Assembly: GCA_043812495.1 (NCBI GenBank)
Contig: JBDRMG010000063.1
Location: 1-35,972, forward strand
Length of the DNA: 35,972 nt
Source of the DNA: Candidatus Omnitrophota bacterium
GTDB lineage: Bacteria; Omnitrophota; Gorgyraeia; Zapsychrales; JBDRMG01
Reading direction: 5' to 3'
Below the pieces are notes generated by a model. That model was not told the origin of the DNA and made no database searches. It was given only the letters and a program-made list of their open reading frames with translations. Shown one piece after another: positions 1 through 35,972 of this stretch (its first letter is position 1; every line of letters begins with the position of its first letter). A program made the position numbers and the translations under genes.

Positions 1-2
1 CT

Positions 3-3000
3 TCGTTTCATGTTTGAGCTTCGTAGAGTTCTACTTTCGCCTTTCCGCCCAAAATCTTTGATTTTGGGCGAGATCTCGCCCTGCTTTGCAGGGCGGACAT
101 CCCCGTGGCAAGCCACGGGGTATTCGGCGAAGTAGAATAAACTCTTTGTGATATAGACAGGACTATAATCTCTCTGAGATATCAATTTTTGAGCATTTCC
201 TGCAACAGTCATGGGCATAAATCTAATCAAAAGAAGACATCCATTCGATAATTCAATTTTTGTTATTGAGCCATCTGTCTTAACAGGTTGTGGTTGATCT
301 ATGAGTGCTTGTGCTTTTAAGGTTTCCATGAGTATCAGAAGACTATCATCATTTTTAAAATTTGTTAATTGCACTAAAACCTTTTGATGCTCAGGAAAGG
401 TCTTGCGCTCTGCCCAGATGAAGTTCATTATACAATCCACCGTTATTCCTGCCTCCCGATGCCCTTTGTCCCAACTGACAATAAAATTAGTTGCTCCTTG
501 AACCATTCGATTGCCCATAGCTCTTTTCGTTTGACGAAGAATATCTTCTGCGTTCTGAGAACTATCCGCAAATGCACAATTCGTAATGATGTTTCGTACA
601 GTCAAGTAACGTGATGCCCGCACGCCACCTAAGACGCCAAAGATAAATGGCTTATGATAAAAGGTCTCTCCGATGCAGAAGGACAAACGATGTACCCCCA
701 ATTGATCCGCATCTTTCAACATCGAGAGAACTTTGGGTATATTTCGCGTTAGATAGGCACAAAATGATTCTGCTTGCAAGCAATGAATACAGCCTTGACC
801 GCACAGATCAGGACCCATCAATAAAACTCTTGGCTGATAAACAGGTCCCGTTATATATTCGGCATTGGCCAGTCTTATTGGGCGCAAAGGAGAATCTCTC
901 AATTGGACTAATCCAAAAACCGCCGGCAGACTCAAACCGGCCAAAAGATGGGCGATATCCCCGAGCATCTCCGCGCCCGAAAGAAGCGCGCAGCTGAGAG
1001 TTACCTCTTCTTTCGATTTGTCAGCGCGTTTCTGTCTCTTGAGACTATGGTAACGCTCCTTTCTAATTTGATTCTCTTTTCTAAGCTCTTCTCCGATAAT
1101 ATCTAATACGTCATAACTTAAAACGAAACCTGCAAGATCCACCTCGCCTAAAGCACTTAGCCAACCCACCAGGACTCTTTTCTGCTCAGGTTCAAGCCTA
1201 TCCGTTCGACGAATGATGTTAAGTAATACTTCCTTAGCATGAAAATCCCCTGATGGATCGGATGGCCTCCATCCAAACGTTTTAGAATACTCCCGGGTCA
1301 AAGATTCCGACTGTAGTAATTCCACATACATATTTTTATAAAGCGCCTGTCTTATATATGGATAAAATGGTCCGTGTTCTTGTTTTCGATAAAGCAATGT
1401 ATACCGAATAAGGGTATTTTTAGCCAATTTCTCCATTAATCCTTGATGCGTTGTCGGTCTTAGTTCATAAAACTCTTCTACGCATTCATCGATAAGACTT
1501 GTCAATAAACGAATGACGAAACCAACGGCTGCTGCATTCGGTTTTTTCATTTCCTGAATAAGTTTTATGAAATTATCATTCTGGATATACTGAGGATTTT
1601 GCCCAAGCAGATCCCCAAACTTTTTCAAGCGATTTTCATTGGCTGTATGCACCAGAGCATCATTAATGAATAATTTGTAAAGACACAAGTCTTTTGCTTT
1701 CCCTAAGGTGCTTGCGTGACCTAGAACCGGCGCACGGCCGCCTTTCGGATCATGGACAAGACCATAGATCACGTAATCATCACGATATTCTGACTCAAAA
1801 ACAACAACGCGCGGACACATCGGTTTAAAAAGTTCTGAAGAAATATCATAAAAGGTCAGCGGCTTGAGTTCTCCAAAATTCACTCCGGCAACATAAAGAT
1901 TTTCTGAGGATGGGGCAGGGAGTCTTACACAAAGAGAGCCGGCATGGTTTAATCCATTTCGATACTGTGAAAGAAAGCGAACCATCGCCTGTCTTTCAGG
2001 GATTTCCTCAATCTTCTTTTGCAGTTTTTCTTTGGCCTCTTTGAGTGTCTGGCCGCTTGCGAGAGTAGGACAATGCTTATCTTTGGTCTTTGGCACACCC
2101 ACGGTATCATAAATCACGACATGCCTTTTTCCGACAGCCGAGAATATCAAGACATAGCGCATAAGATCTTCGTTGAACTCAAACCAAATTTCATAAATTG
2201 TGTCCGCCAGGAGATGACCAAAGATAAGATGTCTATTTTTCCGAGGAGATATCCTTATTTTGCCTCCCTTCTTATTTTTACTTTTTGTGCTTACAAGAAA
2301 GACTCTCATAAAATCTGCCCCAGGCTCAAAGCCTTCAGCTTGTCCCCACTTCATTCGATAAAACTTCTCAAAAATCAATCGGCCCTTGGCTTCAAGAAGC
2401 GTTCTTCCTCTAGATAATGGATAGACTTCACGCGGCTTTCCCTTGGATGGTCTTGAAGGGATTGGATATAAAATATAGTCCTCTTCATTCTCGGACGTAA
2501 AAAGAAAAACATCCTTCTGCAGTTCTTCGACATGATGTAAAGATATCCAGTACCACGCATCTTCCACTAAACACTTGAATATAACTCTTTGATTTGGTTT
2601 CGGTATTACCGCTTTATAAGCTTCTTTCTTCGCTCTCGATTTCTTAGCAGAACGAAGGCCGGGTCTGGTGCATGTTTCTAGATAATTTTTAAAGACCTCG
2701 TGACCTTTGGACCAGCGGATATTTGAAGATCGCTTTAAGCTAAGATCAGATCTGGCTTCATCAAGCGTTTCCCCGTTCGCAAGAATAGGCACAATATTTT
2801 CTCCATCTGGGGGTTCACCGATCAACTCATAAATAATTACGTGTTTTTTGCCTTTTGCCGTAAAAATGAGAATATATCCGTTGAGATCTCTATTAAATTC
2901 GGATGAAACGATATAGGTTGTCTTTGCCAGAAGCTGCCGAAAGAGGAGGTATTTCTTCCTCGATGGGCTAATGAAAATACTCACTAAATGACGGTTCTTC

Positions 3001-6000
3001 GAGGCTTCTTGAGTTGTTATCTCAGTTTTAAGATTTCTTTCGAGTTTCATAAACTCTTCAGACTTATACCAATACATTCTATGGTATTCGTTGAGGGATT
3101 CACGTCTGCCAGTTTTTTGATCAGAGACCTTGCATCCGTTGACTGCTTTCACCCTCCCCGCCAAAGGCAGAAAGGCCATCGCAAGAATTAGAGGATGACC
3201 GGATGCACTTTGGTGAGTTAAAATAAATGCGGCTATCGCCAGCAAGGCTATGACAATAACACCAATAATAAACCATCTCTTGGATGCTTTTTGGGGACGG
3301 ACTGCTGGTTTTTCGCGTTTCTCTTGAACAGGTTGTTTCTTATCAGATTCTTTTTGTTTTTGAGGAATGTCGTTCTCTTTGGAGGCTGCCGACTTCATTT
3401 CCCTTAAGACCTGAAGGCGCCCTTTGACAGCACTAAGTCTTCTGTGAAATTCATCAAGTGGCTCTTTGATGTTTTTCTCTGATAAGGAAAGCTGCCGATT
3501 TCCCAAAGCATTGCGCGCTTTTAAGTCTTGCCAAGCGCCTTGAGCTGCTTGGACCAAGGCGACTGCTTTTTGCACGGCCTCCTGTAATTTTGTATCATGA
3601 CCAAATCCGGACTCTTCAATGTGCTGGAAGACCACGTCCATTTCCAACTCGGGTGATTTTGGCCCTTTGGTCTTTCTTTTCTTTTTCTTATAATCCGGCC
3701 GGCCGCCTTTATCGGAAGAATCCTTCATCAGTCCCACCAAGGGCACGAAGGCGGGACCAAAGACGTTGATGTGATGTAATCCGGGAAGTAAGGTGTTTAG
3801 CGCGGATAAGGAAATAAGCAGAATGAACGTCGAGAGCAGGAAGGTGAATAATCCGTAACGCCGATAAAGCGATCTATATAGGTGATCCGGGGCGCGGATG
3901 GTTGAGTCTCCAGTCATGGGTTCTGCTGTTTCCTTCTCTTCGACTCTATACAATATCCACACATGACGATCGTCTTTTCCTTTTTCCACCGGAATAAATT
4001 CATAAGGATTCTCTTCCTGGAATTTCTTGAGCGGATAGCGGATAGCAGATGGATCATTTTTACCTATACGCTCTACGCTAAACGCTAAACGCTCAAAAAT
4101 GGCGGATAGCGGATAGCGGATAGCGTATCGTTGATAATTAGGGACGTCTTTCATTCTGATCCCAAGGGTGTCCCCATAAGCTCGCCTAAGGGACAGGCTT
4201 AGGTTACGGATGAAGGACGTCCCTGATTTCGCTACTTTAATTTTACATACGATATACGGCATGCTACCTACCAGTACAGCAACAAGGAACACCGCCATCG
4301 CCCATGAATCAACATATAGTAAGATAATATTGAATCTTGCTTTCTGTGAACCTGGTTTTGGAGTCTTTGTCCATTTGAGCGTCTTATATCTGATCGCTTC
4401 TCTATACTGAATGGTATGTGCTATTCTAGAAAGAGTTCTTAAGGTTAATATTCCGATTTGGAATCTAAAGAATCGCTCTATTTGATAAACCAATAAGACA
4501 TTCGACGGATATCTTGCTTTTTCCATTCTGCACATCGTTGTCGGGGAAACGCCGATAATTCTAGCGAATTTGCTTTGACTGTAGCCATGGACGGTTCTTA
4601 ATATCTCAATTCTTTGTCCGACATGACCGTTAGTATGGTCAAGGGCTTCGCCCAAAGAATAACCCGTTAAGATCAAGGACGGTTTGACTTTTAAGATCCT
4701 GGCTAATTCGACGATTTTCTTAGCCGAAGGAGTATACTTATTCAGCTCCAATTCGTTGAAGCTCTGGAAAGCGGCATATTTATTTAAGATCCGTGAAACA
4801 TCTTTTTGTTTAAGGCCATTGATGATTCTTAACATCCTTATTCTTTTGCCTATGGATGCGCTACGGGCCAAGGCTTCCAAGAGAGGATATCCTTCCAGGA
4901 TTAAGCAGGGTTCGATCTGAAGTTCTTCGCATAACTCAACAAATTCCTGAGGCGATGGTGCTCGTTCATCATATTCCCAGCTAATGATTTTCCGAACCAT
5001 CGTACGTATTTCCCGAGAGCTTTTGCATAAGCGTTTAGCTAGTTCTTCTTGAGATAAACCGCGAACCTCTCTTGCTAATCTTAATCTTTGGCCCCTCGTT
5101 TTGTAGCGAGGCATGGCCATGGCTTCCGCAAGAGAACATCCAACCCAGATAAACGAAGGCTTGATATCCAGCGCTCGGCTCAGCTTAACAAGTGTTCTAA
5201 GAGCTGGGCGATGTTTGCCGTTTTCTAAATAACCGATGGCCGCCAAGCTGATATGCGCGCGCCAGGCCAGTACCTCCTGCGTTAGCCCAGATGCTTTCCT
5301 ATATTTCTTAATCTGCCGACCAATGAGAACCGCATTCTTTCGCCTTGCCTGTACCACAGTCATCAGGCCAAGACCGGCGAAAATGGCGATAAGGGTCATG
5401 GGATCGGCGGCCTGAAGGCTGAGGAATTCTAAGCCCGGGATGATGCCATTGACCTGCTCGGAATCTTCGGAAGGATCGATTTTTTCTCTCTCTATAACGC
5501 GATTTTTGATGAGATCGGTAAGTTTTGTTCTATTTTCTTCGAGCTTCGATTGATTGGCTAAATCAAGGCTAAAATACTCGAGGCGATCTCTAAAGTAAAA
5601 GAGCAGATAGCCATTTCGAATCAAAAAGAAGTTCATCAAAAACCATCCTAGCCGATGATGCCCTTCTGCCGTCGAATAAACGTGCTGCTGATCGCCTCCC
5701 TCCCCGATGAGCTTAAACCCTTCCTGACCGACAAGAACACGATGATATATGGTAAATAGATAAATCTCGACGGCATTTTCTAGAACTTTTTTGGGCGTTA
5801 TACAAATTGCGTTTGTTAATTTTAATAATTCAAATATCAGGGTCTTATAGAAGAATTCGCCCTTACCTAAAGTCAATCTTTGCTCGCGTTGATCTGAGTC
5901 CGTGTACTCTGGGTTATGGCGATCTCCTCGGTAGAGTTCGATTAAGTCGACAATCTGCGGCCATAGGATGGGTCGAATATCACCGTTTTCATTTTGCCCA

Positions 6001-9000
6001 ATGACTTTTTCGTTAAAATACTGAACGGCTTCAACAAAATTCGGATGCTGATTGAAAATTCTTTCTGGATCAAGCATGAGATGATCGGAATCGTCCATGC
6101 TTTTATCGTCTGATTTATGCATTGTGTTCGCAATCCTCTTTGCAGAATAACAAGATATCACAAAAATAATAATCGTAATAACGACACAAGCAGCCACTCC
6201 GATGAGCGTTGATGTCATGTCCCCTTTGGGGACCGCAATGCCGCCATGCAATGCGATGAAGTCAATCACAAGCATAGTAATAAAGATAACTGCTTTTAGA
6301 GCTCCTATTGATTTCATTTTCTGTAAAAGCAACATAACACCAACAACGTTTAGCATCAAAAGTGAGAACAGTTTCACAACATCTTGTATATTGATCAACT
6401 GTTCATGTCTTGTGAGTTCGGATCCTGCCAATGCCCCTTGCGCCTGGAGCAGGTCAGCCATGATACTAATCGCAGCCCACCAAAACGCGATGTGACGGAT
6501 GAATCTAAAGAATTTTTGCGTTGGTGTTTTGACGGCCTCTTGAGGCGCATGGAGATGTCTGAAGTAATGCGCGGTCACAAGAGCCCAGCCGATCAAAAGG
6601 CAAACGGCAATCAACTGCATATCTGAGGGGGCGAGGCAGTTTTGGCTGCTCGATCCCGAAATAGTATCTTTGTTCTCGTTTGCTTGATTCAGCAATCCCC
6701 GTTTGATTGCCACGCCCAATTCAATCACTTCGCCGGAAGGGAAGATAATGTACCACTTATCGGCAACATAGTAATATATAGGCTCAAAGTCAATCATGGG
6801 GACAAACGGATCCAGTAAGAATCCGAGCGGACAATTGAGAACATTTGAATTTCCGTAAATGGCTTTGATGTTAACTTGGCCTAGGCTGCCTCCTTCCGGA
6901 TTGCAAACAGATAAAAATAGGCACGGAATTGGATATTTTGCCGATATTTCGTTGACAGTCTCATCAAGATTTTCTCCATTACTTCTTAATTTAAGGCGAC
7001 CATCTTGAGTTTTTCCATGATCGGAGAAAATGTGCCGGGCGCTGGAAAGGATGCCGCAGGTCGAACTTATATCATTTGTGTTTTGCGCATAAAGAGAAGG
7101 GTCGAAAACAAAGAAGGCTAAAATGAAAGCCGCCCCAACTATCCATCGATTGCTTGAGGAATGCTGTCCCATCGGATAAGAGCTCTCTTCTTCATGGAGA
7201 TTAGGGACGTCCTTTGCCCCTATCGGAAGCCTGTCCCCTCGGAAATTGATCGGGGACACGCTTGATTTGCGGGCGAAGGACGTCCCTAATTTATTGCTTC
7301 TACTGAGAAATTTGAGAAAAGTCGACGCACCAGCCCAAAGGAGATTTATTGCAGAATACAAAAGCCGCCATACCCATAAGAACGGTCTCACCCGGCTTCC
7401 CTCGGAAGGAATTGTTGAAGCCGGGATGCCGACCTCCACTGAATTTCTCGAGAAAAGTCGGCACACCATTTCGGCACTTCTCGATATGAAATTGTGGAAG
7501 TCGAAATCCCGGTTTCCTCTATTAAACGTATTAAGGAAAACCGGGACCACGGAAAGGAATTTTATTAAAGAAGACGGTCGCCAGACCGGGCAGAGCGTTC
7601 CCCCACCAGCCACGGAAAGGTAGGAATGCTCCTTTAAATGAGCCCGGTCTGGCGACCTTATTGGTTGTTTCGTGGCCTTACCATTATTGTAATCATTCCC
7701 AACGCGATTGAGAAAGATTTTTACAACTTTTTGCCGCAGTATCTTAGAAACAAGAAAACTGATCATCATCACGGTGATGAAAATAGGTATCCACTTGCTT
7801 ATAAGCGTATTCAAGTCATTGATGGACACGGCAGACATGAAGAGTAAAATATTATGCACTTTGAAATTCTCTAAAGAAGGCTTTTGCGCTCGCAGGCCGA
7901 TCATAAAGGTTGTCTCTTTGGGCAGGTGATCGACCTCAAAAATTCCACCCTGATTTTCGATCATCTGACGCACAAGTGAAACATCTCCTGATCTCGATTT
8001 CATCATGTCTTGCGCGCAAGCTTTGAATTCGATCAGCAGATCTTGATCTTGACTGTCATATGTTGTTTCGATTCTTAAAATGGGCCAGGGACCGGCGAAT
8101 TTGAAATGATTTGAGCTGATAATAAACAGATTGAGAAACACGCGTAGTAAGGAACTATGGGAAGCAATCACCGGTGGAGCCTTATTCTGCACGACGCGTG
8201 CCAGACGGATATGCCTAACCATGTAACGGTGTTTGATTAACTGAACGGCTTGGTCCATGATATTGTCGATATCGACTAATCGTCGATCCATAACCGTTTG
8301 CCGTTCCGGCTGTAATTGGCTAATGACGGCTTTAGCTGACGCCGCCATATGGGAGAGCTGCTTATCTTCGTCTTGAATGAATGCGCCGAGAGCGTCCAAA
8401 GAAGTGTCGACAAAATAATGAATCAATAGGAATGTTTCGGTCGGATTTGGCCGGTCGATATCAACCGATAATGTGCGCAGGCGATACACCTGATCTTCTT
8501 TATCGCGCGTTTTTGTTCTTTCGCTTAATGCCTGATCATCCGCAACGTTGTGTAAATATTCGGCCATCAGAGAAAGAATAGCGCGATAATCCCGGATGAT
8601 CGCCGGCCACTGTTCGGCCAATTTTTGCGCCCTTAAGGCCATCGGCTCTATACAGGTTTTCTTAAAGGGTGCGAATAAATTCCGTGTTTCATAACCGGCC
8701 AGCCGGAAGCCTTGGGCAAGGTCTTCAAAACTCAATAATTCTTGTGCGTCCATAAGCCCAAGCAAACAGACCAAGGCTGTTTTGCGAACAAGTGTCAACT
8801 CACCAGCGCGGACCATAGCCAAATTCGTATTCTTGGCAAACAACCGGTGACAAAGAGTAGCCTTGGGCGCGGCCATGATCCCTTCGAAGATATTTGCCGC
8901 GCCCAAAACGATAACATCGCTTTCGTACTCGTTGATTCTTCTGATTGTATCGGCGATGATCTTTTGCTCTTCGGTATGCTTGGTCTGATACCCTTGCGCG

Positions 9001-29100: not shown

Positions 29101-32100
29101 TGGGTAAGTAGGGTCTTGAGCGAGGGCCTCTTTGGCCGCTTCTTCCATTTTGTCAATCTGCCCCATCTCGGCGTACTTCATGGCCAAATTATACAAACCC
29201 TTGGCTTTTTCCAGGCCTTCCGGCGCCAAGTCCACGGCCTCTCGATAAAACCGTGCGGCTTTTTCTTCATCCTGGAGGTGATCGCCATAGGCGATCGCCG
29301 TAAGATTCAAGAGGCCCGCATTCACGTATCCTCTTTCTCTTGCTTCTTCAAGAATTTCCGGTATTTTCTCATAACGCTTCAACTCATAATTGGCCCGGCC
29401 CAGAATAAAATAAAGATAATCTGACCGCCTTGTGTCAACGCCTTTTTCTTCCTGGAGCCTTAAGGCTTGCCGGGCAAACGAAAGCCCGGCTTCAAAGAGG
29501 CCTTCGTTGAGACAAATTTCAGCCCTGTAGCCCATGGCACTGATATGGAGGAGAATGCCGGGCTTAACATCATTGCGCAAGAATTCCTGCGTATGCGCCA
29601 ATGTTTCCTCGATATATTTCCTGGCGTCTTTCCATCGGCCGGTTATCATATAAGCCGCGCCGATGTCATGGCAGGCGACCCTGACAAATCCGGGAATCCT
29701 GAAATTCTGCGAATGGCTTCCCAAGATCGTCCGCCTGTCTTTGACGAAACGAATGAGTCTTTCGTAATCCTGAGTTTGAAAATAGAGATTAACGAGATCC
29801 ACCATCACGTCGATATTGCCCGGCTGGATGGCGATCGTTCTTATGAAGTCCTCTTCGGCCTCCTTGGATCGTCCTTGTCCTTTCAAAAGAAGCCCCCGCA
29901 CAGAATAAAGTCTGGCCTGAAATTCTTTGCGTTCGCTCGTGGAGAGTCTCGCGTCCTGCGTCACTTTTTCCGCGCGATCTGTTATTGCAAATATTTTTTC
30001 TGCATCATCGAAGCGGCTGTAGAGATTTGCGTAAATAAGAAGAACCGGGATCCTGAATGCCGGCCTTTCCTGAACGCAAGCCAATTGATCTATGCGCTCA
30101 AACACGGCGGCCAGGGTTAACAGAGTTGCTTTATCCATGTCGCTTTCGACCAACCGGCTCAAGGCTTTCTGAAGAGGTAGGTCGAAATTGTTTTCCTCAT
30201 CAAGAATGTCCCGCTCCATGGTCAGAACCGTCTGAACAAGATTCTCAATAAATGGGATATCATTCGTCACGGCAAAGTTAAAAGAAATCACGCTGGATAA
30301 AACAAAGATGCAACCGGAATCCTTTGCATTTTCAGGTTTACCCAACAATCGCTCGCAGGCCAGCCTGTTATTGTCCCGGGCTCTTTCAAGATCATTCGTT
30401 CTGGTATAAAGAATCGACAATAAATTAGGAATGCCGAATCTCTCTTGATTCAGTCTCTTCGCTGTCTCAAGATATCCGATGATTTCCTGGTCATGGCCTT
30501 CCTCGCCTTTGGCTTCAATCGCCTCCGCGAGCGAGCAAAGCATAAGAGACTTCACGGAATCCATGTCTTCCTCATCCCCTTGCTCCTCGATACCCTCAAG
30601 CGCTTCTTTTAGAAGCGCGATCGTTTGATCAAATTCTTTCTTAAGAAAACACCCTTGCGCCTTATTGTAGCAATCTAACCAGCTTCTTCTCTCGCGTTTC
30701 GACTGAAGAGCCTGACGCTCATCTTCCGACACGCCTTCGACAAGCTCGATAAGCATTGTGACAATTTTTTTCTCTCTATCTCCCAGCGGCCAGCCGTTCG
30801 TTGAATTAACGCTGTTTAAGAAATTTCTCACAAAGGAAATATTCCTCACGTTGTTGAGGGCGAACTCGTTGCGCACTCTGACCGCATAGACCTGGTATCC
30901 TTCCCGAATATGACCCGGATAAATTTCTCTGGGGAGCGCGCTTTCCAAAATGTCCCTGCGATAATCCAAATAATGTTTGGCAGCGATTTCTTGCGCGCTT
31001 TTACGAAGAAGGGCGATGCGCAAATTGCGCCTGATCTTGTCCTGCCGCGATTCTTGTGAGCTTTCAGCGTCCCATTCAGCCTCCCATGCAGTTGCTTCCT
31101 CTGGCCCTAATTGTTCCAAGAGTTCGATCAGGGCTTCCTTTCGGGCATAGGTATTGAGCGTGACGGGAGTGAACAGGCCCTCTTCGATTAATTTGCCAAA
31201 TTCTTCGTCAACCATAGCGCATAACCGCGGAACATTCTGCGCCGGAATCAGTATTTTATTCAACGCCCGTTTCTCAAACATCCAAAGACTGATGCAGTAA
31301 TAAAAGCTGTTTGAAAATTCTTCTTGGGTAAGGCCTTGGGTATTTTTCAGAACATCAGTGCGCGTATAAAGAAAGTTGTAGCACTGGATATCCAATTGTT
31401 TCCAGCATTCGTCTTTGATGTCTCTGATCGAGAAACCTGGATTTTGCGCGAGTGCGTCAATAATACGGTCGACATCTTTGCGCAATTCCCGTAATCCTGT
31501 ATCAAACCCATTGCCCTCTCTACCCGGCCCTCCATAAACAAGCCGATACACTTCCTTGAGTTTGCGTCTTGTCCCATAGTACTCTTTGGCTACGGCAACA
31601 GCGTATTGCCAGTCCCCTTCAGGTGTCCCGGGAGCAACGGGAATCCGGTTGTTCTCAATAATAAATCCTCGGAAAATATCATCAAGAAACTGAACAAGAT
31701 TTCCTGATCCCTTTTGTATGATATCAAAAGCGTTTTTCAAATCCCTCAGGCTTAATTTTGGATGATCAACGGCAAACTGCGCGAAGGTTAAAGGGAGAAT
31801 ATCGTGTTTTTGATAATAGCGGGAATTCAAAATCACGCAGGCTGCGCCTACCGAAAGAACGGCCAAGAGCATTTTCGGCAGGTCGCCTCGGTCGTCCCAA
31901 TGTTTCACGACGGCCTCATAAATGGCATCCTGGATGTCCTGCTCATCATGCCCAAAGACCTCGGCGTAAAACGGATGGTTTTTCTCAATATAGTCTTTGA
32001 GGATCAACGCCAGGAATAAGGCGCCGATATGCCCGACGGTTCTTGTTTTGGCCTGTCCTTCCGTCGTTGCAAGGACATCGGAAACAAGCCACATGATTTC

Positions 32101-35100
32101 TTCACGGGCTGAATCATCTTTGCCGTAAAGCTGGGGCAAGAGAGCCGCTAATTCTCTTTCCGCTCTCTCAATTTGTGCATCAACCGTCTGCTCGCGGTTC
32201 TCTTCTTGTTTTTTCGTTTTTCGTTCGTTGAGCTGTCCGATGACCGCAGCGACATAGTCCTGAAATTTTCGGTTCTTTATTTTCCTTTTAAGCCCTTCCA
32301 AAAGCTCAACGGCCTCATCAATCGCCTGGGTCTCCTTAAGGACCGGTAATTTGTCGATTTCCTTCTGGATCTCGCTGAATATCTTCTTTCCACCGTTCAG
32401 GAGGGCCAGTAATCGTTCAAGCTCACCCTGAACTTCGTCAAGGATTAAACGATCGAAGTCCGCACCAACGGTTTCTGTGATTTGGGCGATCTGCGCCTGG
32501 ACGCTCCGCAAATGTCTGTTAATATCTTGGTCATCCGGGGCCAGCTGAACAGCTTGATTCAAAAATCCTTGGGCGCTTCTTAATAATGATATTTTCTCTT
32601 TCAAATCGTCCGTAAAATCAGCTTCTTTTGCCTGCAGGATCCCGTGCTGGTAATAGACAAAAATCTGATCTCGTTTTTTGTCTTCTTCGAGGGCACGTCT
32701 TTCACTGCGCTCAAGAAGTCCATCCAAAAACATCAACGTTACATCAAACATCGCGCTTCGCTGCTTTTCAAGAAGTGTTAGTTCGACGGAAAGCGCGCAA
32801 AGGGCCCTCAAGGACTCCGGATAGCGCATCATAAGTTTTCTTTGCTTTTTGGCGATAGCCAATAGGTCTTTAACATTCTTTACTTTTGATGCTTTTTTCT
32901 TCGCAACGGCCATATCCAAAACAGCCTCTTGAAAATGCTTGCGGGCCGATGTCAGGTCTCCTTCGTCAAGAGCAAATCGAATATAAGCAATGGAGCACGA
33001 CACAGACAACAACAATTTCTCACTTACGCTGATCTCAACGGCCTTGGCCAAACAATCTTTCGCCCCTGTCCTGTCTTCTTCCTGCCATTTCCGCCCGGCT
33101 TGTGCAAGAAATTTGTAAACTTTTGCTATGGTGCTTGTCTCATCGATTTCTAGGGCCTTGTCCGCAAATCTCTCCGCGAATAGGTATTTGCCATTTTCAT
33201 AATGCATGGTAGCCTTGACAAAAGCAATCCACTTGTTATTCTCGCCATCTTCAAGCCTTTTTAAGGCCTGGAGCGCGGCTTGATATTCTTCAAGGGTTAG
33301 AAAACATAATCCTTCCAGAAACTTATAACGTTTGATCAATGTTTGCCCATCCTCATCAAGCGAATCGTATTGCTCACACAACGAATCAGCAAGAGCTTTT
33401 GTTTCATGAAAATATCTGAGGACTTCTTCGGACTTATTGGACTGAACATAGGCGCTGGCGAGCTGATTAATAGCTTTGATTTCTCCGATAGGATTTTTTT
33501 GTTTTCGGGCAATCTCAACAGCCTGTGTAAGGATGCTGATGCCTTTCTTGAGAAACTTCTCCGCCTTATCAGCCTTCTCTTGTTTGCCCATTTCATAACC
33601 AGCAATCACGCAACACTCGCCAAAGGCATAACACATATCAAAATCGACTTTCCTTTGGCTTTTCATCAATTCTTGCACTTTTTCGTGATAGTCATACGCC
33701 GTATCAAAATCCTGCCTGTTGTAACAGATAATCGCCAAGTAGTAATACGGGTCGGCCACGGTTTTATCTATTTCAATAGAGCGAAGAAGAACTTCTTCGG
33801 CTCTTTCGGGATCAAGATTAGCGAGAAGACCTCCTAAAAGCGAAAGATAATGCTGATTATTCGGATGAACTTCAAGCAGTCCTTCCACATAGGCAATTCT
33901 TTCAGGAACATCCATTGTGTCCCATCGCTTTTCCCGAACGTCACCGGAGGCAGAATGGCTGGTTACTTTTCGCATGACATTAGAAGCGACATTGTTAAGT
34001 TCATTTTCCGGGGTTTGTTCTTCAGGATCGCCGTTCTTGCCGTTCTTACCCGTCGGGTCAATTAGGCCCAAGGCGATGAGGGGAACATCCATGCCTCCCA
34101 TTGTTTGACCAGTCAGTATTCCGTAGATGATCAGGCTCGCAGCAACACCCGCCAAGGCGACAGATAAAAGGTGTTTGTAACGCGTGTTTTTATTCGCAAA
34201 GAAGTACCACGCGGCTATCGCGAGCATCAACAAAATAAGAAACTCCGTTCCGGGCGCGCTGAATCCGACATAAAGCGGCAGGGTGCCCTGGATTCCGTTA
34301 CCGGAGTCTTTTTCTTGAGCCAAGTGGTCGGATTCGATTTGAAGAAGGCGCAGAAGAATGAGCGACTCATAAAGGTGCTTTCGGACGATTGCGGCTTGTT
34401 CGGATTCAGGCTTATCTTTGGTAAAACCTATATAATTTGCAATCATGGTAAAATTTGTATCGAGAACCTGCTTGATCGCTGATTGATAAGCGTCAACGGT
34501 TGTCAGCCTCATTCCGTGAGGATCAAGCTGCTCAACAATGAATTTCTCTTCTTGCAAATAGGGCATACGCCTATAGACTTCCTGAAGGACGCTTTGCGCC
34601 TCGCTGATCACTTCTTCTTCGCTTAAGACAGCCGCTCTTCGATACACAGCAAACATGATAGCCGGCTGGTTAATCGACAAACATTTTGTTAACACGGCGG
34701 CTTTACTGAGGAATTTAAATAGATTTCCAAACAAGCTCTGAGTCAGCGGATCATCCCTCATCTGCTGGACCATGGATTGGACAACCTTTGCTTTCCACTC
34801 AGGATCAAAAGCGATGCGCAGGGCATGGTAGAGGTCTTTCCTTAGTTTTTTTCTTTTGAAAGAACTGATATCTTTAAGACCGTCGATAAATGTACGGTAA
34901 GCCTGCTGGATCTGTTCTTCTTTGTCTCGGGGGTTCTCTAAGTGAATTATGCGAATTGCTTGGGTGAGATTTGTTAATGCGTTGTAATCCCGCGTGGCCG
35001 GATAAATAATGCTGTTGATATAACAGTCGGTTCGCACATCATCCGGTACGGGGGAACCGCGCAAACGATTGAGCCGGCCTATATAATGCGCATAAGCTTC

Positions 35101-35972
35101 TTCGAAGAGTGTGTCTTGATCGTCAATGGTAATATTTCTTGAGCCGTGAGTCAATTTCCATCTTTCCTGCAAATAGCCATAATAATGGCCGATGGCTTGC
35201 TTGGCTTGTGAATCGTCAGCGACATACTCCTGAATATCGTAAATCTCCAGGCCCAGCGGTTGATCTTCCGTCGTTTTGCACACGACGATGAGACGCGCTT
35301 GTTTTTGTCCCTCTTGAATATAAGAAAGGTAATAGTTTTGTACCGGTTCGCTTGTTATTTGACGGAGAACATATTCCCGAAACCTTTGACGGAATTGAAT
35401 GGCTCCTAATTGTCGATTTGTCATTTTTTCGGCGTCTTTCCGCTTATCCGCCCCGAATTCCTCCGCATACCACGCAATCAATTCTTCTCTCGGCGAATAA
35501 TCATGCCGAGAGGCCTTCTTGAGCGCCTCGACTTCAAGTTCGCTATACTGCGCAAGATTCCGGCCGATATAGCCAACATGCGCATGATCCACATTTTCAA
35601 AACCATCTAAGGAGTCAAGAAAATCTCTGATCGCATCTCTGGCCTTATCGGGAACATCAAATGCAAAATGGAGCCCCACGGCTAAAGCCGTGGTCTCCGA
35701 CGAAGGCGGATGAATTTTGAGTCCGTTTTCTGATGAAAGCAGCGGTGAGCTTGAATCGGGTTCAGTAAAATCAAAGGGCATCTGTGTATCTTGATCGTCC
35801 TCTTCTCGTTTGCCACCGAACACCATGCCCGCAATAAACAGGCCCACCAAAACAAGCCAAATGATCCCGCTGTTGATGTCTCCCGTCGAAAACATATGCT
35901 CCAGCCCCAAGAAGCCGATAATACCTAAATGAAGAGATTGTTTCTCAAAATCCTTGCCTTCGCCGTCTTTTT
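17002..35972 (-). CDS. ORF-A: giant TPR-rich multidomain membrane protein (at least 6322 aa, 5' end beyond window end)
   Basis: The ORF track gives 6302 aa from a TTG at 35910, but the frame stays open to the edge (..KDGEGKDFEKQSLHLGIIGFLGLEHM), so the true start lies outside the window. Many hydrophobic segments separate soluble domains. Confidence 0.95.
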   Translation of the reverse strand, partial: KDGEGKDFEKQSLHLGIIGFLGLEHMFSTGDINSGIIWLVLVGLFIAGMVFGGKREEDDQDTQMPFDFTEPDSSSPLLSSENGLKIHPPSSETTALAVGLHFAFDVPDKARDAIRDFLDSLDGFENVDHAHVGYIGRNLAQYSELEVEALKKASRHDYSPREELIAWYAEEFGADKRKDAEKMTNRQLGAIQFRQRFREYVLRQITSEPVQNYYLSYIQEGQKQARLIVVCKTTEDQPLGLEIYDIQEYVADDSQAKQAIGHYYGYLQERWKLTHGSRNITIDDQDTLFEEAYAHYIGRLNRLRGSPVPDDVRTDCYINSIIYPATRDYNALTNLTQAIRIIHLENPRDKEEQIQQAYRTFIDGLKDISSFKRKKLRKDLYHALRIAFDPEWKAKVVQSMVQQMRDDPLTQSLFGNLFKFLSKAAVLTKCLSINQPAIMFAVYRRAAVLSEEEVISEAQSVLQEVYRRMPYLQEEKFIVEQLDPHGMRLTTVDAYQSAIKQVLDTNFTMIANYIGFTKDKPESEQAAIVRKHLYESLILLRLLQIESDHLAQEKDSGNGIQGTLPLYVGFSAPGTEFLILLMLAIAAWYFFANKNTRYKHLLSVALAGVAASLIIYGILTGQTMGGMDVPLIALGLIDPTGKNGKNGDPEEQTPENELNNVASNVMRKVTSHSASGDVREKRWDTMDVPERIAYVEGLLEVHPNNQHYLSLLGGLLANLDPERAEEVLLRSIEIDKTVADPYYYLAIICYNRQDFDTAYDYHEKVQELMKSQRKVDFDMCYAFGECCVIAGYEMGKQEKADKAEKFLKKGISILTQAVEIARKQKNPIGEIKAINQLASAYVQSNKSEEVLRYFHETKALADSLCEQYDSLDEDGQTLIKRYKFLEGLCFLTLEEYQAALQALKRLEDGENNKWIAFVKATMHYENGKYLFAERFADKALEIDETSTIAKVYKFLAQAGRKWQEEDRTGAKDCLAKAVEISVSEKLLLSVSCSIAYIRFALDEGDLTSARKHFQEAVLDMAVAKKKASKVKNVKDLLAIAKKQRKLMMRYPESLRALCALSVELTLLEKQRSAMFDVTLMFLDGLLERSERRALEEDKKRDQIFVYYQHGILQAKEADFTDDLKEKISLLRSAQGFLNQAVQLAPDDQDINRHLRSVQAQIAQITETVGADFDRLILDEVQGELERLLALLNGGKKIFSEIQKEIDKLPVLKETQAIDEAVELLEGLKRKIKNRKFQDYVAAVIGQLNERKTKKQEENREQTVDAQIERAERELAALLPQLYGKDDSAREEIMWLVSDVLATTEGQAKTRTVGHIGALFLALILKDYIEKNHPFYAEVFGHDEQDIQDAIYEAVVKHWDDRGDLPKMLLAVLSVGAACVILNSRYYQKHDILPLTFAQFAVDHPKLSLRDLKNAFDIIQKGSGNLVQFLDDIFRGFIIENNRIPVAPGTPEGDWQYAVAVAKEYYGTRRKLKEVYRLVYGGPGREGNGFDTGLRELRKDVDRIIDALAQNPGFSIRDIKDECWKQLDIQCYNFLYTRTDVLKNTQGLTQEEFSNSFYYCISLWMFEKRALNKILIPAQNVPRLCAMVDEEFGKLIEEGLFTPVTLNTYARKEALIELLEQLGPEEATAWEAEWDAESSQESRQDKIRRNLRIALLRKSAQEIAAKHYLDYRRDILESALPREIYPGHIREGYQVYAVRVRNEFALNNVRNISFVRNFLNSVNSTNGWPLGDREKKIVTMLIELVEGVSEDERQALQSKRERRSWLDCYNKAQGCFLKKEFDQTIALLKEALEGIEEQGDEEDMDSVKSLMLCSLAEAIEAKGEEGHDQEIIGYLETAKRLNQERFGIPNLLSILYTRTNDLERARDNNRLACERLLGKPENAKDSGCIFVLSSVISFNFAVTNDIPFIENLVQTVLTMERDILDEENNFDLPLQKALSRLVESDMDKATLLTLAAVFERIDQLACVQERPAFRIPVLLIYANLYSRFDDAEKIFAITDRAEKVTQDARLSTSERKEFQARLYSVRGLLLKGQGRSKEAEEDFIRTIAIQPGNIDVMVDLVNLYFQTQDYERLIRFVKDRRTILGSHSQNFRIPGFVRVACHDIGAAYMITGRWKDARKYIEETLAHTQEFLRNDVKPGILLHISAMGYRAEICLNEGLFEAGLSFARQALRLQEEKGVDTRRSDYLYFILGRANYELKRYEKIPEILEEARERGYVNAGLLNLTAIAYGDHLQDEEKAARFYREAVDLAPEGLEKAKGLYNLAMKYAEMGQIDKMEEAAKEALAQDPTYPEAHLAMASVYQQRGEVDKAVQSYCQVRSLGSDSINARLNLAVLYAQVDRLDDAANELRPVMATDRYENALLAELPTQPRKSRAVLSGVAIFLVRELSEEIVALTEQIDRKAGKTKENHSDGNGKKTKGKAGKKSTAKAKKKRKDTELETWKRERRQKTDLLKVQMRIFLVLTENIAIEELIKFFETMMEMEPIKADADLADQIRQRVVQIPEWMEDMRKQQEADEKLAEEMEDLLGQAWSFYDQGRYEEAKKYVDQILSKMPLHEGARALRIKILYAHAQKAFKEDRLSDARRFAGAVLGKDPSHEGARALLAQIGQKEKEKALERLQGNVNKLVELYRGGDPEGFKEDLNKLREPELFGDIFEAYPQEAGAIMTVAENEAKKKDHLDEESLVRLLEERTAGCINDYNFRIPETFEECLSALGEEFQGKLDEEKIDEILNRARAEIVGIEEDRLQKVEEYKGRLMGIACDMPEKIEQAIADFTGQHEDHLKEQEKEDIQAEVRECARENLIKKRCDESAAALREDRLSDARQLADEVLALDQDHRGAKNFLNQIAQKEKEKRLDDLREAVCGFANRYPGGDSEGVLEDLEGYRRPGSFGEVFWAYRAEAEAIMVEAKQIAKRKDGLDEAGLAKTLEEEARAAVIDYDFRNPDAFHNRLHDLEEQYAGQIPGGRIDWILKQAEDSVDRKEEARSKKFGAFRYSALTIAEQRPQNFEEEFARLRLQFSEHLTDYEIAKVEKLAQERLKGSLGEIKTSDLKQLRTSVNAIVSSYLGEDPKGLGADFARLPQVHEAIFTQYPEDAEGIVKAARKDAYKKDKVILQKKNDVLIAGYQGENLEELKATINDLIDSFDYVFGQGEIETFKNLTLRSVGRRIMTNLRSGGGIQRQDEDETVAAFATQITFAVSLYNPVDPREYEETRRNAIGTFENKLDSDQMNNVLGQARDQIKKMNDLHNIKVGEYKKQAKALAEEQFENQETFEASLDDFTKGLLGKGEITPQEAEDIKQAGLAEAEIYRDVSSAEAKDALAKERLGIDPEVKEELTFDKVAEILTDQYPWIRAHRFGERMVSEYLLAVQTSDSPMTPQQVLEAFKEFKSAGMLLTEALDGVFGLSIFEKAHYQMRMLLSNAINARNDLDWDDIGALIKALKASGEAINLDAIKRLAGAIKAGKNKNFDKLIEENLNGSVGFGLWPQDLMDMLSSGLTRGDVLIALILVVGLLTLAYALSHRQQIIEFMQDKASLSRLGTFFALILRVSPLLREWDTLQQPAKNVPNLGWPKTLAKNILLLPVTLAMGGPVYPNPYDENRPFYDHAIELKLAIVPSMQKVEYSNLLTITYRKQDKVYSIDSDDFHRIMNGDDPECSAISELTDKSEDGLRPVMDIKACETLASLFFMTRRILEEYPVHSTQQIITFGASSAKDINQERKEEEEGITLTVGLKISDGACTIMLGIVEMVKEHYELHPVRHDIAMIAFDINEPSKSWLHYASPLAQRVLSQDAGAFSCRLYSLVNAFTLFNPSMSFLSIPHSGRVITGHFDDKATSVNEFLFFNSPEECLLLMILLSGTFFALILRVSPQTKDGDTLQQPAKNVPNLGWPKTLAKNILFLPITLLMGGGYFNLAHSRNVENLVSPLGSPEEMQSVFSLPGLGSVHLDLVLWGVILVLAYGVYRNVVMSYVVRSYGLTINTNPHCKTVGRLATRYLLLSTPLIFAVLFFILANEQALAGMLFCDLPAFMLFAAVFPDDDRKEDSVLTENHPITITATDGQEFTLMLERSYKNRYLIEVYYNDLRYGVISFEIKGSEAIIGGEYKSWSEAVRVDTLVLERRTRVRYRGFHAVLVIEAMKVAQNMGAKFIETIDDRKKVGLLRTLCFEEYPLEDGRVRMRFYFSSGRSIPKAKITTTSEADDARIAANQNAQKSQYNAAIGNYGKGTGYMGAARLYLAQRNDEQARKAFESAFIAAKISLRNDNKAIEILDQWKEAMLQVSRTTEAIECLERKANLLKELKRYQKALDPIQEIARIHQGLKAYPEASDYYYQAASLAVKKLKDVDRGINLSKEAYACSRLANDPRRIIFHAWVTIELLGHKIEISSRGQVLRTICDGFDEQQEAAKLYGEAKKHFEAAEETPGHHLVAAALMASHPLIADYEQFIVLAEAANTHYQRAPAITKETSRERIVADIGLLRRVRMNVFFEGKMPKEARCAFELASTLAASLNEPKLIPEFLGKEISRLEKQFAQEQFKIDGDRSSEKARQAASGNDHPLAITHGLEAVSHYIKAQVFGNEVPSMVQFCLEHARTPEDFEKIITKIDEWAGGLLSGFSGYRIFYLFNQPNQKMIFATDQLPGWCRLYAGELLFNAFLWTSGWLHENQDTTGYNDDFTQSMEFLTKAAEYLEYAYSRNQRFPLDYKTRNLQRLTGYIEKGRTRVAQLIEDEKFEEAKTACNAVKFFALALEDGKTAGAIFEKMKAIDARTQEPAKESEHAANQAQSEAQAYERKEEYPQALDKYLEAAQCFYEAKQYSCVQSVLNFAFQIVTGRYVSQEKSYEAIQKIAWLASSLAIHYRNEEDSEKMMLPSLMVMLDAEQAFEKHEGEIGTKLYVDVAKSYYEGPREYFAKIADHQGECLLIASIMASCPLIGENDQFRLLSERAEKFYSGTRDIAKDAYPRFEGYVRLCVKRAEVFIKQRMPEEGWQAYRLATALAKTMRNPSAVPASLRKDLERLDHPDNCIYWSEILRQRYLGENNEKANEVLALGDMEEELIWLAKELRNIIRELRADTYIVNVILWLADMGKIPSDEFDSWKQEVLIVDRVWDQNFSIGFAIEGAIVEHGEDIDGIIQYFRSGEFCFEDDKFSNWVFKLHKDAIYRGIFYNSEVLERMFNECHGLGASEITKKLERAYMRMQDIGKLSLEDIVFMLKAVGKITDEELPKWRAQIGQARVDALKIKETKKQKRLEWEMSLREGGRSGRKKKGGDRAGDPETVVRLIEELVPEGSAQSDKKKKEIKPDGQKRYDERHKPRQGEGTTSSEKKKNKKKQNKRSPGEKKRRAKKKAAKRKSSNCWFVPGLPVGHAGSSDAAIALIAAAVGLLIMIAIAYWLTRKIRLQSPVAHLLFPMLLSAAAGVLIILKVYSASLEPFHPFSIFLMIALTGIVRSDRNTALRQDAKDLRLKLKQAVLERTVDEEMILKAVKLMARYRHWLRGVKKDLRNEAELQIARNMPCLIYECESCLNKSSQSENLSFDGSHNPKGISYKIAKKICDDRERGHFGFDWNRLEDYFLQGRGVWLAIGKTDRRIIIKGHGTILMSPENDLINIREKIMIYLSKNLLVLQNRFLKEQSNQFQYLGCYLQDLILFVYAIDGIIAEDGLALIIKNPFCITSLEFNPSQKCYVSVFPVIDFAHLNHIFWGVAMMVLVALILKARWVDKLRNKEVIIIGAGIGGSYAAMLAARNGFNVRILERTPENKTGDPLFGRKCAEGVWLEKLVQAGFDMDRNHLPDWVVHSTNQFMLGRINKRGQIDTAELRTTPYLYINRKLFEQENLRKAQEAGAIIDYGVNIEDLEAFAREHSDSIILLATGTNASLTRQMLLPEERRKDKTDHSYALVAQYTYTGVDLTRLGKYKTLIASDNPDIGWFYMYPRGRTAESEVNVGIGFAKAKTSRPFDVLDSIIACVDEHFGGIFENAMIIPDRKFAKHISIGKPITFSNMDKERLPNVIPIGDAARQASALTGGGIGNALYSAKEAISLLKKHADKSPAVVQREYFDSIQDFLENLTKIAESYSRLYPQEKKPKIRVLNKIMIALSELERIDGVLSLVSLKELVGKIEHEQTLPEKIINEFRSVEGIFEKSAYEKITILLKIIKERRLLELLPQPELWWEEIVEDALEMDLQELQAVLLKEKESQVAISSRKEDVLRAIGFYGRLSPHRSINESLPEAMRAEGVYDNGKKEDISIGLAGVILRDKPALGEIYGYLGINFSNLDPILFGLALAVLIALILKAYRARAQSADGRTMDPSASPFAYAQGKLRGERWTMDEIPRLPSLIPHLS
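17800..18850 (-). other. FAD-dependent oxidoreductase domain of the geranylgeranyl reductase family within ORF-A
   Basis: VIIIGAGIGGSYAAMLAARNGFNVRILER, KCAEGV, YINRKLFEQ, GWFYMYPRG, VNVGIG and IGDAARQASALTGGGIGNALYSA. Confidence 0.88.
20960..23350 (-). other. TPR/SNAP-like helical solenoid with an internal ~490 aa duplication within ORF-A
   Basis: YPEASDYYYQAA / YPQALDKYLEAA. LMASHPLIADYEQF..MPKEARCAFELASTLA matches IMASCPLIGENDQF..MPEEGWQAYRLATALA. Confidence 0.7.
23455..23850 (-). other. Possible GNAT-like domain within ORF-A
   Basis: VRVD..RYRGFHAVLVIEAMKVAQNMGAKFIE..VGLLRTLCFEE follows the GNAT motif A/B order. Confidence 0.45.
23994..24121. repeat. Heptamer/octamer tandem-repeat tracts
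   Basis: GAGTAGC-type x5 (23994-24028) and CATACGA/CATTACGA-type x7 (24069-24121), translated in ORF-A. Confidence 0.85.
24270..24423. repeat. ~150-bp direct repeat containing 89-bp palindrome copy 3 (24335-24423)
   Basis: Near-identical to 25221-25374, offset 951 nt (317 codons). Encodes GTFFALILRVSP..DTLQQPAKNVPNLGWPKTLAKNILFLPITLLMGG. Confidence 0.95.
25221..25374. repeat. ~150-bp direct repeat containing 89-bp palindrome copy 4 (25286-25374)
   Basis: Partner of 24270-24423. Confidence 0.95.
26640..28270 (-). repeat. ~239 aa helical internal repeat (two full copies plus a partial third) within ORF-A
   Basis: EDRLSDAR..QKEKEK..Y.GGD.EG..ED..KKD.LDE..DY.FR.P recurs at a 717-nt offset. The third copy is YLGEDPKGLGAD..YPEDAEGIVKAARKDAYKKD. 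Confidence 0.85.
28900..30680 (-). other. TPR array within ORF-A
   Basis: For example RLYSVRGLLLKGQGRSKEAEEDFIRTIAIQPGN and EAHLAMASVYQQRGEVDKAVQSYCQVRSL. Confidence 0.9.
32500..33900 (-). other. TPR array within ORF-A
   Basis: For example DPYYYLAIICYNRQDFDTAYDYHEKVQEL and FVKATMHYENGKYLFAERFADKALEID. Confidence 0.9.

Follow-up and report, generated by a model that had tools for sequence, protein, structure and literature searches.

The giant gene in the window, by which we mean the whole 35,972-nt stretch of Omnitrophota DNA analysed here, probably grows by entry of DNA at its linkers. Each entry would leave the local linker duplicated without help from a dedicated recombinase, and toxin–antitoxin (TA) pairs among the cargos would resist loss of what has been gained. 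A first-pass annotation had described unrelated cargos bracketed by duplicated transmembrane linkers and had read them as a cassette array translated as a single polyprotein. The observation proved largely real, and the interpretation is partly supported, being right in outline and wrong in two details.

As far as the fragmented assembly shows, the window belongs to a giant gene of the Omnitrophota type. It is the whole of contig C63 in a 1.94-Mb genome of 66 contigs (G000, 90% complete), and its assignment to the phylum is based on a sequence match: the DNA is shared with a genome of the same class, at a locus labelled Candidatus Omnitrophota. Against a length of at least 10,000 amino acids, the window gives 6322 + 5722 codons with one break and both edges open (Table 1), and many transmembrane segments are scattered among its domains, as in other giant genes of the phylum. 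A hydropathy scan revealed 19 hydrophobic blocks in the window and 167 in all giant pieces of the genome. The upstream piece is TPR-rich, with an FAD domain and hydrophobic linkers (Pfam and hydropathy), and the downstream piece contains two HPr domains, a HATPase and HTH repeats (Pfam). Using a hexamer model trained on the ordinary genes of the genome, we found the giant frame to be best-scoring in 99% of hexamer windows upstream and 92% downstream, with 19% of those in the downstream frame scoring as non-coding. Stop-free frames of the giant type occur on 13 contigs and sum to 94,132 codons (14.6% of the DNA), with frames of 11,223, 11,238 and 25,094 codons on contigs other than C63.

Table 1 Coordinates of the frames, repeats, cargos and nested genes of the window
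Feature	Position	Strand	Description
Giant frame, downstream piece	3..17168	-	5722 codons, open at window edge
Giant frame, upstream piece	17002..35970 (stop-free 35970-17005)	-	6322 codons, open at window edge
Overlap of the two stop-free frames, +1 break	17005..17168	-	164 nt, within hairpin-type repeat DNA
Pair 1, upstream linker copy	12107..12204	-	Transmembrane segment and charged tail
Pair 1, downstream linker copy	11294..11391	-	Direct repeat
Promoter-like site, sigma-70-type	11500..11528	+	TTGACA-17-TATGCT with TG, 30 nt before toxin start
DUF4258 gene	11559..11825	+	88 aa, predicted RelE/BrnT-fold toxin; antisense and codon-aligned to giant frame
DUF2283 gene	11838..12050	+	70 aa, predicted antitoxin, GGAGG before start; Pfam E 2.5e-15
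Linker proposed as third relative of pair 1	10290..10418	-	Weak similarity
HATPase_c domain of kinase-like cargo	10431..10745	-	Pfam E 5e-23
Pair 2, upstream linker copy	18877..18954	-	Direct repeat
Pair 2, downstream linker copy	17149..17226	-	Direct repeat
Flavoprotein cargo	17230..18870	-	39% G+C vs 45% for the window
Pair 3, upstream copy	25221..25378	-	Palindromic element (25282-25378) and ~60 nt of host sequence
Pair 3, downstream copy	24270..24427	-	Palindromic element (24331-24427) and host sequence
Pair 3 cargo	24424..25220	-	Part coding-like, part not
Further palindromic copy, in frame	4134..4230		99% identical to a copy in the C20 giant frame
Further palindromic copy, in frame	7198..7293		Inside a 700-nt non-coding-scoring stretch without a stop

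The single unbroken polyprotein originally envisaged is not supported for the window as assembled, which has two stop-free frames. The +1 break between them near 17.1 kb may be a mutation or an assembly error, with a programmed shift as a third option. A second +1 break was found within a giant frame at G000:C20:33579-33670, and no motif common to the two breaks was found. The last residues of the downstream frame recur in register, via a repeated element, at the start of the giant frame on C20. At positions 1-140, a repeat element with 13 matches in the genome ends the contig, and the frame runs on in register into C20. More small repeat families (13915-14135, 14938-15067, 4025-4140 and 35660-35725) are read through in frame, and copies of three of them are clustered at C53:22311-22772, beside a HicBA operon. 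The Cys-rich stretch at 69-968 (CxxxCxxC), which by eye looks radical SAM-like, had no match in Pfam or NCBIfam. The window also contains plain tandem repeats, among them a run of three to four units at 26-28.5 kb and the HTH repeats, and short linker tandems exist at offsets of 81-102 nt.

All three pairs of direct repeats are real, with the partner of each copy ranking first among ~93,000 in-frame positions. Pair 1 (98 nt, 81% identical, offset 813), extended by its flanks to 141 nt, matched its partner at 70% and the next-best position at 47.5% across 93,427 in-frame positions from all giant-frame pieces of the genome. For pair 2 (78 nt, 65% identical, offset 1728), the partner was the top match among 93,742 positions, with the next best at 51% and a mean of 27% (sd 5%). 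Pair 3 is longer (153 nt, 89% identical, or 92% over 141 nt; offset 951) and is not simply the transmembrane linker it was taken for, because most of it (~95 nt) is a dispersed, hairpin-forming repeat element (folding z of -8.3 and -9.6). A further 69 non-palindromic bases were duplicated too, at 88% versus 49% for the next-best position in an in-register scan of ~93,000 positions. The palindromic element has 14 matches in the genome (folding z, -3.8 to -9.6), of which 8 lie in giant frames and four in the window, and it is present also between ordinary genes. That the offsets are multiples of 3, as had been pointed out, is not independent evidence because both copies of a pair share one frame. 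The linker put forward as a third relative of pair 1 was outside the top five DNA matches and ranked fourth of 257 at the protein level, self included (score, 47), a similarity that is suggestive only. Across the genome, the best match of a linker was the adjacent block in 21/167 cases by DNA and 28/167 by protein, versus 1.8 expected.

The cargos between these repeats are unrelated, as had been claimed: no homology was detected among 10 cargos of the window. Pair 1 encloses a TA operon, which was confirmed by Pfam and lies on the opposite strand. The flavoprotein expected in pair 2 is geranylgeranyl-reductase-like (E 6e-22, below the cut-off), with no homologues in 250 genomes of the class at E 1e-15 or among 7999 candidates at E 1e-10. 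Relatives of the pair 3 cargo were found in none of Pfam, the 250 genomes, the protein collection and the Atlas.

Together, its sequence and a structural model predict that the operon in pair 1 is an intact antisense DUF4258/DUF2283 TA pair. Its layout is that of a type II system: two small genes, one of a toxin and one of an antitoxin family, lie next to each other behind a promoter-like site of their own. This site scored highest among 18 in 10.5 kb, where chance would give 15.5. The DUF2283 protein is presumably the antitoxin. The DUF4258 assignment was below the Pfam cut-off (E 0.001); the protein model (pLDDT 94) had its best fold matches in HP0894, YoeB, BrnT and RelE (E 0.04-0.07), and a search of solved-structure sequences with the toxin alignment gave no match. 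The available part of a published survey (PMC11980606) counts DUF4258 among the uncharacterised toxin families with a BECR fold, in the RelE/ParE superfamily. For the giant frame to meet a stop across the operon, the operon must use the codon TTA, CTA or TCA. When 1652 stretches of 158 codons from ordinary genes were examined, just 32 were free of all three. None of 2000 shuffles was stop-free, either for the TA unit or for two non-coding-like stretches, and the exclusion of stop codons from such junk argues for read-through.

We identified the same operon in 13 of 400 genomes searched across the phylum, and in 12 of these 13 the antisense frame was open across the whole locus. Five more nested loci came from two genomes of the same order, one other genome locus and 2 of 16 metagenome loci; free-standing copies were found at 14 metagenome loci and, in other phyla, at three genome loci. 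When copies were grouped by their flanks alone, which left out 8 loci with short flanks, the operon had no antisense stop in 14/14 nested copies versus 2/10 other copies. This grouping was preferred to a raw codon count (0/2441 versus 32/2071), which we set aside as circular. Between nested copies, synonymous sites differ at 48-86%, and dN/dS was 0.04-0.19 in the operon frame (5 of 9 pairs, the other 4 being saturated) versus 0.62-1.42 in the giant frame. Because the first range is low and the second near-neutral, the operon proteins appear to be selected and the giant frame to be selected only for openness. This agrees with the original claim that captured DNA is kept in frame, as the nested operons lack antisense stops and the giant frame is near-neutral yet open. 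In one copy (L023), two stops interrupt the toxin, yet the giant frame remains open; nested toxins have also decayed through one stop in the HicA of C20 and a truncation in L004.

The nested copies also share their edges. A TTGAC box was the best -35 match in 11/17 nested versus 0/12 free-standing copies, and similarity between nested copies stops close to the -35 box at one end and a few bases after the stop codon at the other. On the operon tree, the window copy is placed (99/94) among copies of other orders in the class, apart from two same-order copies, which suggests that the operon moved by transfer. The nested state required 3 changes on the tree, and one origin was not rejected (single clade, p-AU 0.15). 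One metagenome locus (L031) has a 4069-codon open frame with several backwards-gene-like stretches in addition to the TA operon.

When 905 alternative-frame ORFs within the genome's long frames were scanned by codon score, and 19 of them checked with Pfam, more antisense genes came to light in the giant pieces. Besides four PIN pairs and two HicBA pairs, they include a DUF433 gene, an antitoxin-like gene on its own, a pair of coiled-coil genes and an IS630 element. Giant frames hold 4/4 PIN, 2/2 HicA, 2/2 HicB, 1/1 DUF2283, 1/2 DUF433 and 0/1 ParE members of the genome. Overall, 8 of 10 TA-type operons lie in these 14.6% of the DNA (binomial P 7e-6, which is too strong because most of the TA families were chosen after nested members had been seen). 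Nested modules fell between best or second-best matching linkers of 256 in 5/9 cases, versus 10/92 consecutive linker pairs, a control that itself contains TA pairs.

This pattern is also seen in another genome (G307), where seven TA-type operons occupy the opposite strand of one 5999-codon frame (18 kb) with repeats of 44-127 nt at 93-98% identity. Of the 14 antisense ORFs searched there, 10 match PIN, DUF2283, DUF5615, DUF433, HicA or HicB, and both PIN_3 genes of the genome sit in this stretch. Other TA families are mostly free: in a 60-genome sample of the phylum with G000 excluded, 3/28 PIN_3, 3/21 HicA and 1/29 ParE loci were nested, and 3 PIN_3 and 30 ParE matches that came without loci lie outside these counts.

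Several other nested elements were observed. A two-ORF IS630-family transposase (G000:C20:8440-9500) is antisense in a giant frame, which stays open, and two related coiled-coil genes (C65:24181-24537 and C53:3783-4169) are likewise antisense in giant frames. The lone antitoxin-like gene (C53:7954-8240) has a promoter; since the adjoining repeat includes a PIN gene's end, it looks like a duplicated TA unit minus its toxin. On the strand of the giant frame, but in another frame, lie small genes that have strong ribosome-binding sites (C11:13321-13587 and 19717-20049, and L180:10483-11034); they matched no Pfam family and have look-alikes in G307.

Linkers around nested operons show the same duplication beyond the window. 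A flanking repeat (E<0.001) was found at 8/16 nested loci, always in frame, compared with 8/150 random giant-frame intervals of G000 and 1/8 free loci; it was not significant at the remaining 8/16 or at the nested IS630. The repeats differ by lineage, each host using its own linker. The window and G015 have a transmembrane linker and G297 has a larger domain, whereas in G307 a 44-nt piece hugs the operon on both sides and other classes have short RSEAR/RAEVR-type peptides. In G309, five linker copies (70-94%) lie between unrelated cargos.

Fixed cargo order in relatives would have spoken against the first-pass annotation, and the outcome favours it, on giants other than that of the window. G297 has the order linker-TA-linker-glycosyltransferase-mutase, whereas the homologous G226 has glycosyltransferase-mutase-linker-TA and a different cargo ahead of the enzyme block; both enzyme labels are ones we assume from the sequences. 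G003 shares a 400-residue domain with 15.3-16.5 kb of the window, which lies ~130 residues from its TA copy versus ~1100 in the window. Among 40 relatives, the cargos of the window's giant had no DNA-level match except for the TA operon and repeat elements, and none of the 40 genomes was a close relative carrying an allele of the gene.

These observations fit a process in which a DNA piece would enter at a linker, by single crossover or by replication template switch, and would leave two copies of the local linker with the cargo between them. The two-copy footprint is consistent both with single-crossover integration of DNA carrying a related linker and with a template switch, and the data do not separate them. 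The sole filter on an insert would be that the giant frame stays open, with the ribosome reading through junk; any frame-keeping insert would survive, because IS630 and hairpin elements sit in frame. Operons lacking TTA, CTA and TCA codons in register would be pre-adapted and could move between giant genes. Two linker copies should in turn make a unit prone to popping out by recombination, and a predicted TA cargo would kill cells that lose it. TA units may therefore pile up and protect neighbouring cargos, and because they would counter-select deletion, this may be why TA cargos so often have visible repeats. Such guarding would not be permanent, because nested toxins have decayed in three copies. 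Several findings count against this explanation: half of the nested loci lack a significant flanking repeat, most TA genes of other families in the phylum sample are free, and the frame is broken near 17.1 kb and once in C20.

A rival history, which we consider unlikely, is ordinary tandem duplication of a linker with its domain followed by divergence or replacement, with TA operons, insertion sequences and repeat elements as squatters that stabilise only themselves. Tandem duplication did build parts of the window, where plain tandem repeats are common, and short linker tandems exist; IS630 and the palindromes sit in frame without linker duplication, and some toxin copies decay. But neighbouring cargos lack the detectable homology this history would leave, repeats down to 44 nt flank the operon on both sides in G307, and mutual best matches bracket TA modules more often than other linker pairs. 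Squatters should also find entry into a giant frame costlier than intergenic entry, yet most of the operons are there. A giant gene that is decaying into a junk sink, its long frames being relics and its inserts untranslated, is very improbable. The frame breaks in the window and C20, the non-coding-scoring fifth of the downstream hexamer windows and the many repeat elements inside are what decay would produce, but 12,000 codons run without a stop apart from one break, the shuffled sequences never stayed open, and the nested operons are near synonymous saturation and still lack an antisense stop. In L023, moreover, it is the toxin that carries stops and the giant frame that is open.

The involvement of an integron-like or dif-module-like site-specific recombinase, moving units via the repeats or the palindromic element, is likewise very improbable. 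The array layout and self-promoted TA cassettes do resemble sedentary chromosomal integrons as described in the available text of PMC13108822, and the strongly folding palindrome brackets the pair 3 cargo. Y1 transposase genes are also present (7 matches, two of them scoring 68-69 against a REP-associated model with a cut-off of 80), in a genome that is 90% complete. However, the repeats have no common core, differing in every pair and lineage, and pairs 1 and 2 are unfolded (z, -0.9 to +1.8). In line with the first-pass annotation, which saw none, no recombinase family was found in the two frames of the window. The tyrosine recombinases found in the genome, two in all, proved to be XerC and XerD and scored under the cut-off for integron integrases, and no attC-like site common to the array was found, the repeats being unrelated between pairs and without an Rfam match. 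An integron, which would have an IntI-type recombinase and a shared folded attC-like site, is therefore not supported. Nor is a XerCD dif module: a search of the genome with a dif-like pattern of 28-bp sites gave 17 matches, all of them outside the window and away from the modules. The palindrome occurs also between ordinary genes. The data thus lend no support to a cassette array that has a dedicated site or enzyme. No reverse transcriptase was found in the genome; ComEC is present.

Growth by entry at linkers may be one part of a wider picture, which we advance tentatively: Omnitrophota giant genes as recombinase-free, superintegron-like cassette arrays translated as one polyprotein, in which a phylum-wide pool of stop-free TA cassettes travels and locks units, and a C39 peptidase cuts the product. 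The product might be cut into separately anchored pieces, possibly by the C39 peptidase of the C45 giant, and this is the step we hold least firmly. A C39 domain with a hydrophobic leader and its Cys and His kept lies at the start of that giant (G000:C45:2927-20080), which is not linked to C63. Basic residues were commoner after than before single hydrophobic segments (76 vs 36 of 120; control, 27 vs 29 of 74), and in consecutive linker pairs this bias kept the same direction in 30/66 and alternated in 28/66. The consistent alternation that an uncut chain would need was not seen, which hints at product cutting, although the 28 alternating pairs count against it. A search of the linkers for a conserved cut motif gave Ser/Pro enrichment and nothing more. 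Neither of the two SecA matches in the genome is in a giant frame (0/2); the second, a gene piece with a frame break on a 2-kb contig (C55:1-1041), may be foreign to the genome.

The literature treats as open both the way in which the longest known bacterial genes acquire domains and whether such genes are translated from end to end, and the incorporation of new domains is left open in the available text of 10.1101/2023.11.21.568195; the inserts give a handle on both questions. The repeats predict exact breakpoints for gain and loss. Since gene callers hide TA operons and insertion sequences inside giant ORFs, counts of defence and mobile elements in the phylum would be too low. Part of the unannotated 'dark' sequence of giant proteins would likewise be backwards DNA rather than new folds.

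REP and REPIN elements are dispersed short hairpin repeats with RAYT transposases. The pair 3 element resembles them as a dispersed ~95-nt hairpin in a genome with RAYT-like genes and differs in that most of its copies are in frame inside coding DNA, with none of the 14 matches beside any of the 7 Y1 transposase matches. Embedded antisense overlapping genes, each contained entirely within another gene but read from the other strand, have reportedly been studied in bacteria. Here, the embedded genes belong to known TA families and are themselves the conserved partner, the host frame over them is near-neutral and the arrangement recurs across classes.

Giant multi-transmembrane genes of Omnitrophota, of an 'Archaeovorin' or multi-enzyme class, are known (10.1101/2023.11.21.568195, 10.64898/2026.06.07.730766, PMC10066038), and those described in the available portions of these papers have much in common with the present gene: a very long frame, scattered hydrophobic segments, TPR, HATPase and enzyme domains, a small genome and the phylum. 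An N-terminal C39 or S8 peptidase and a SecA DEAD domain are marks of the class; here C39 starts the C45 giant, and no SecA domain was found in a giant frame. Their published accounts, in the same portions, treat domain content and topology, in contrast to the linker duplication, nested antisense operons and TA enrichment described here; the word 'antisense' is absent from the available text of all three and 'opposite strand' from that of the first two. No description of nested TA operons or of linker-bracketed capture in giant genes was found in the literature covered, in which subscription journals were thinly represented and preprint supplements lay outside.

The DUF4258 type II pairs in the available part of PMC11980606 are also two small genes with a predicted RelE/BrnT-like fold; they are listed antitoxin first, whereas here the toxin comes first, with DUF2283, and the pair is nested. 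The PeSL cassettes of T4-type phages are modules that become shuffled when their repeated separators recombine, and mini-circles may serve as vectors (PMC2839356, available part). The PeSLs are one non-coding repeat family between genes, whereas the separators here are coding, differ by pair and lie inside one gene. Like the sedentary chromosomal integrons of PMC13108822, in so far as its available text describes them, the present system strings together many unrelated cargos, among them TA operons that carry their own promoter-like sites, and TA cassettes are argued there to prevent deletion. Unlike in those integrons, no IntI, attI or attC was found; its separators are coding, lineage-specific direct repeats, and its array is one reading frame, whereas integron genes are silent.
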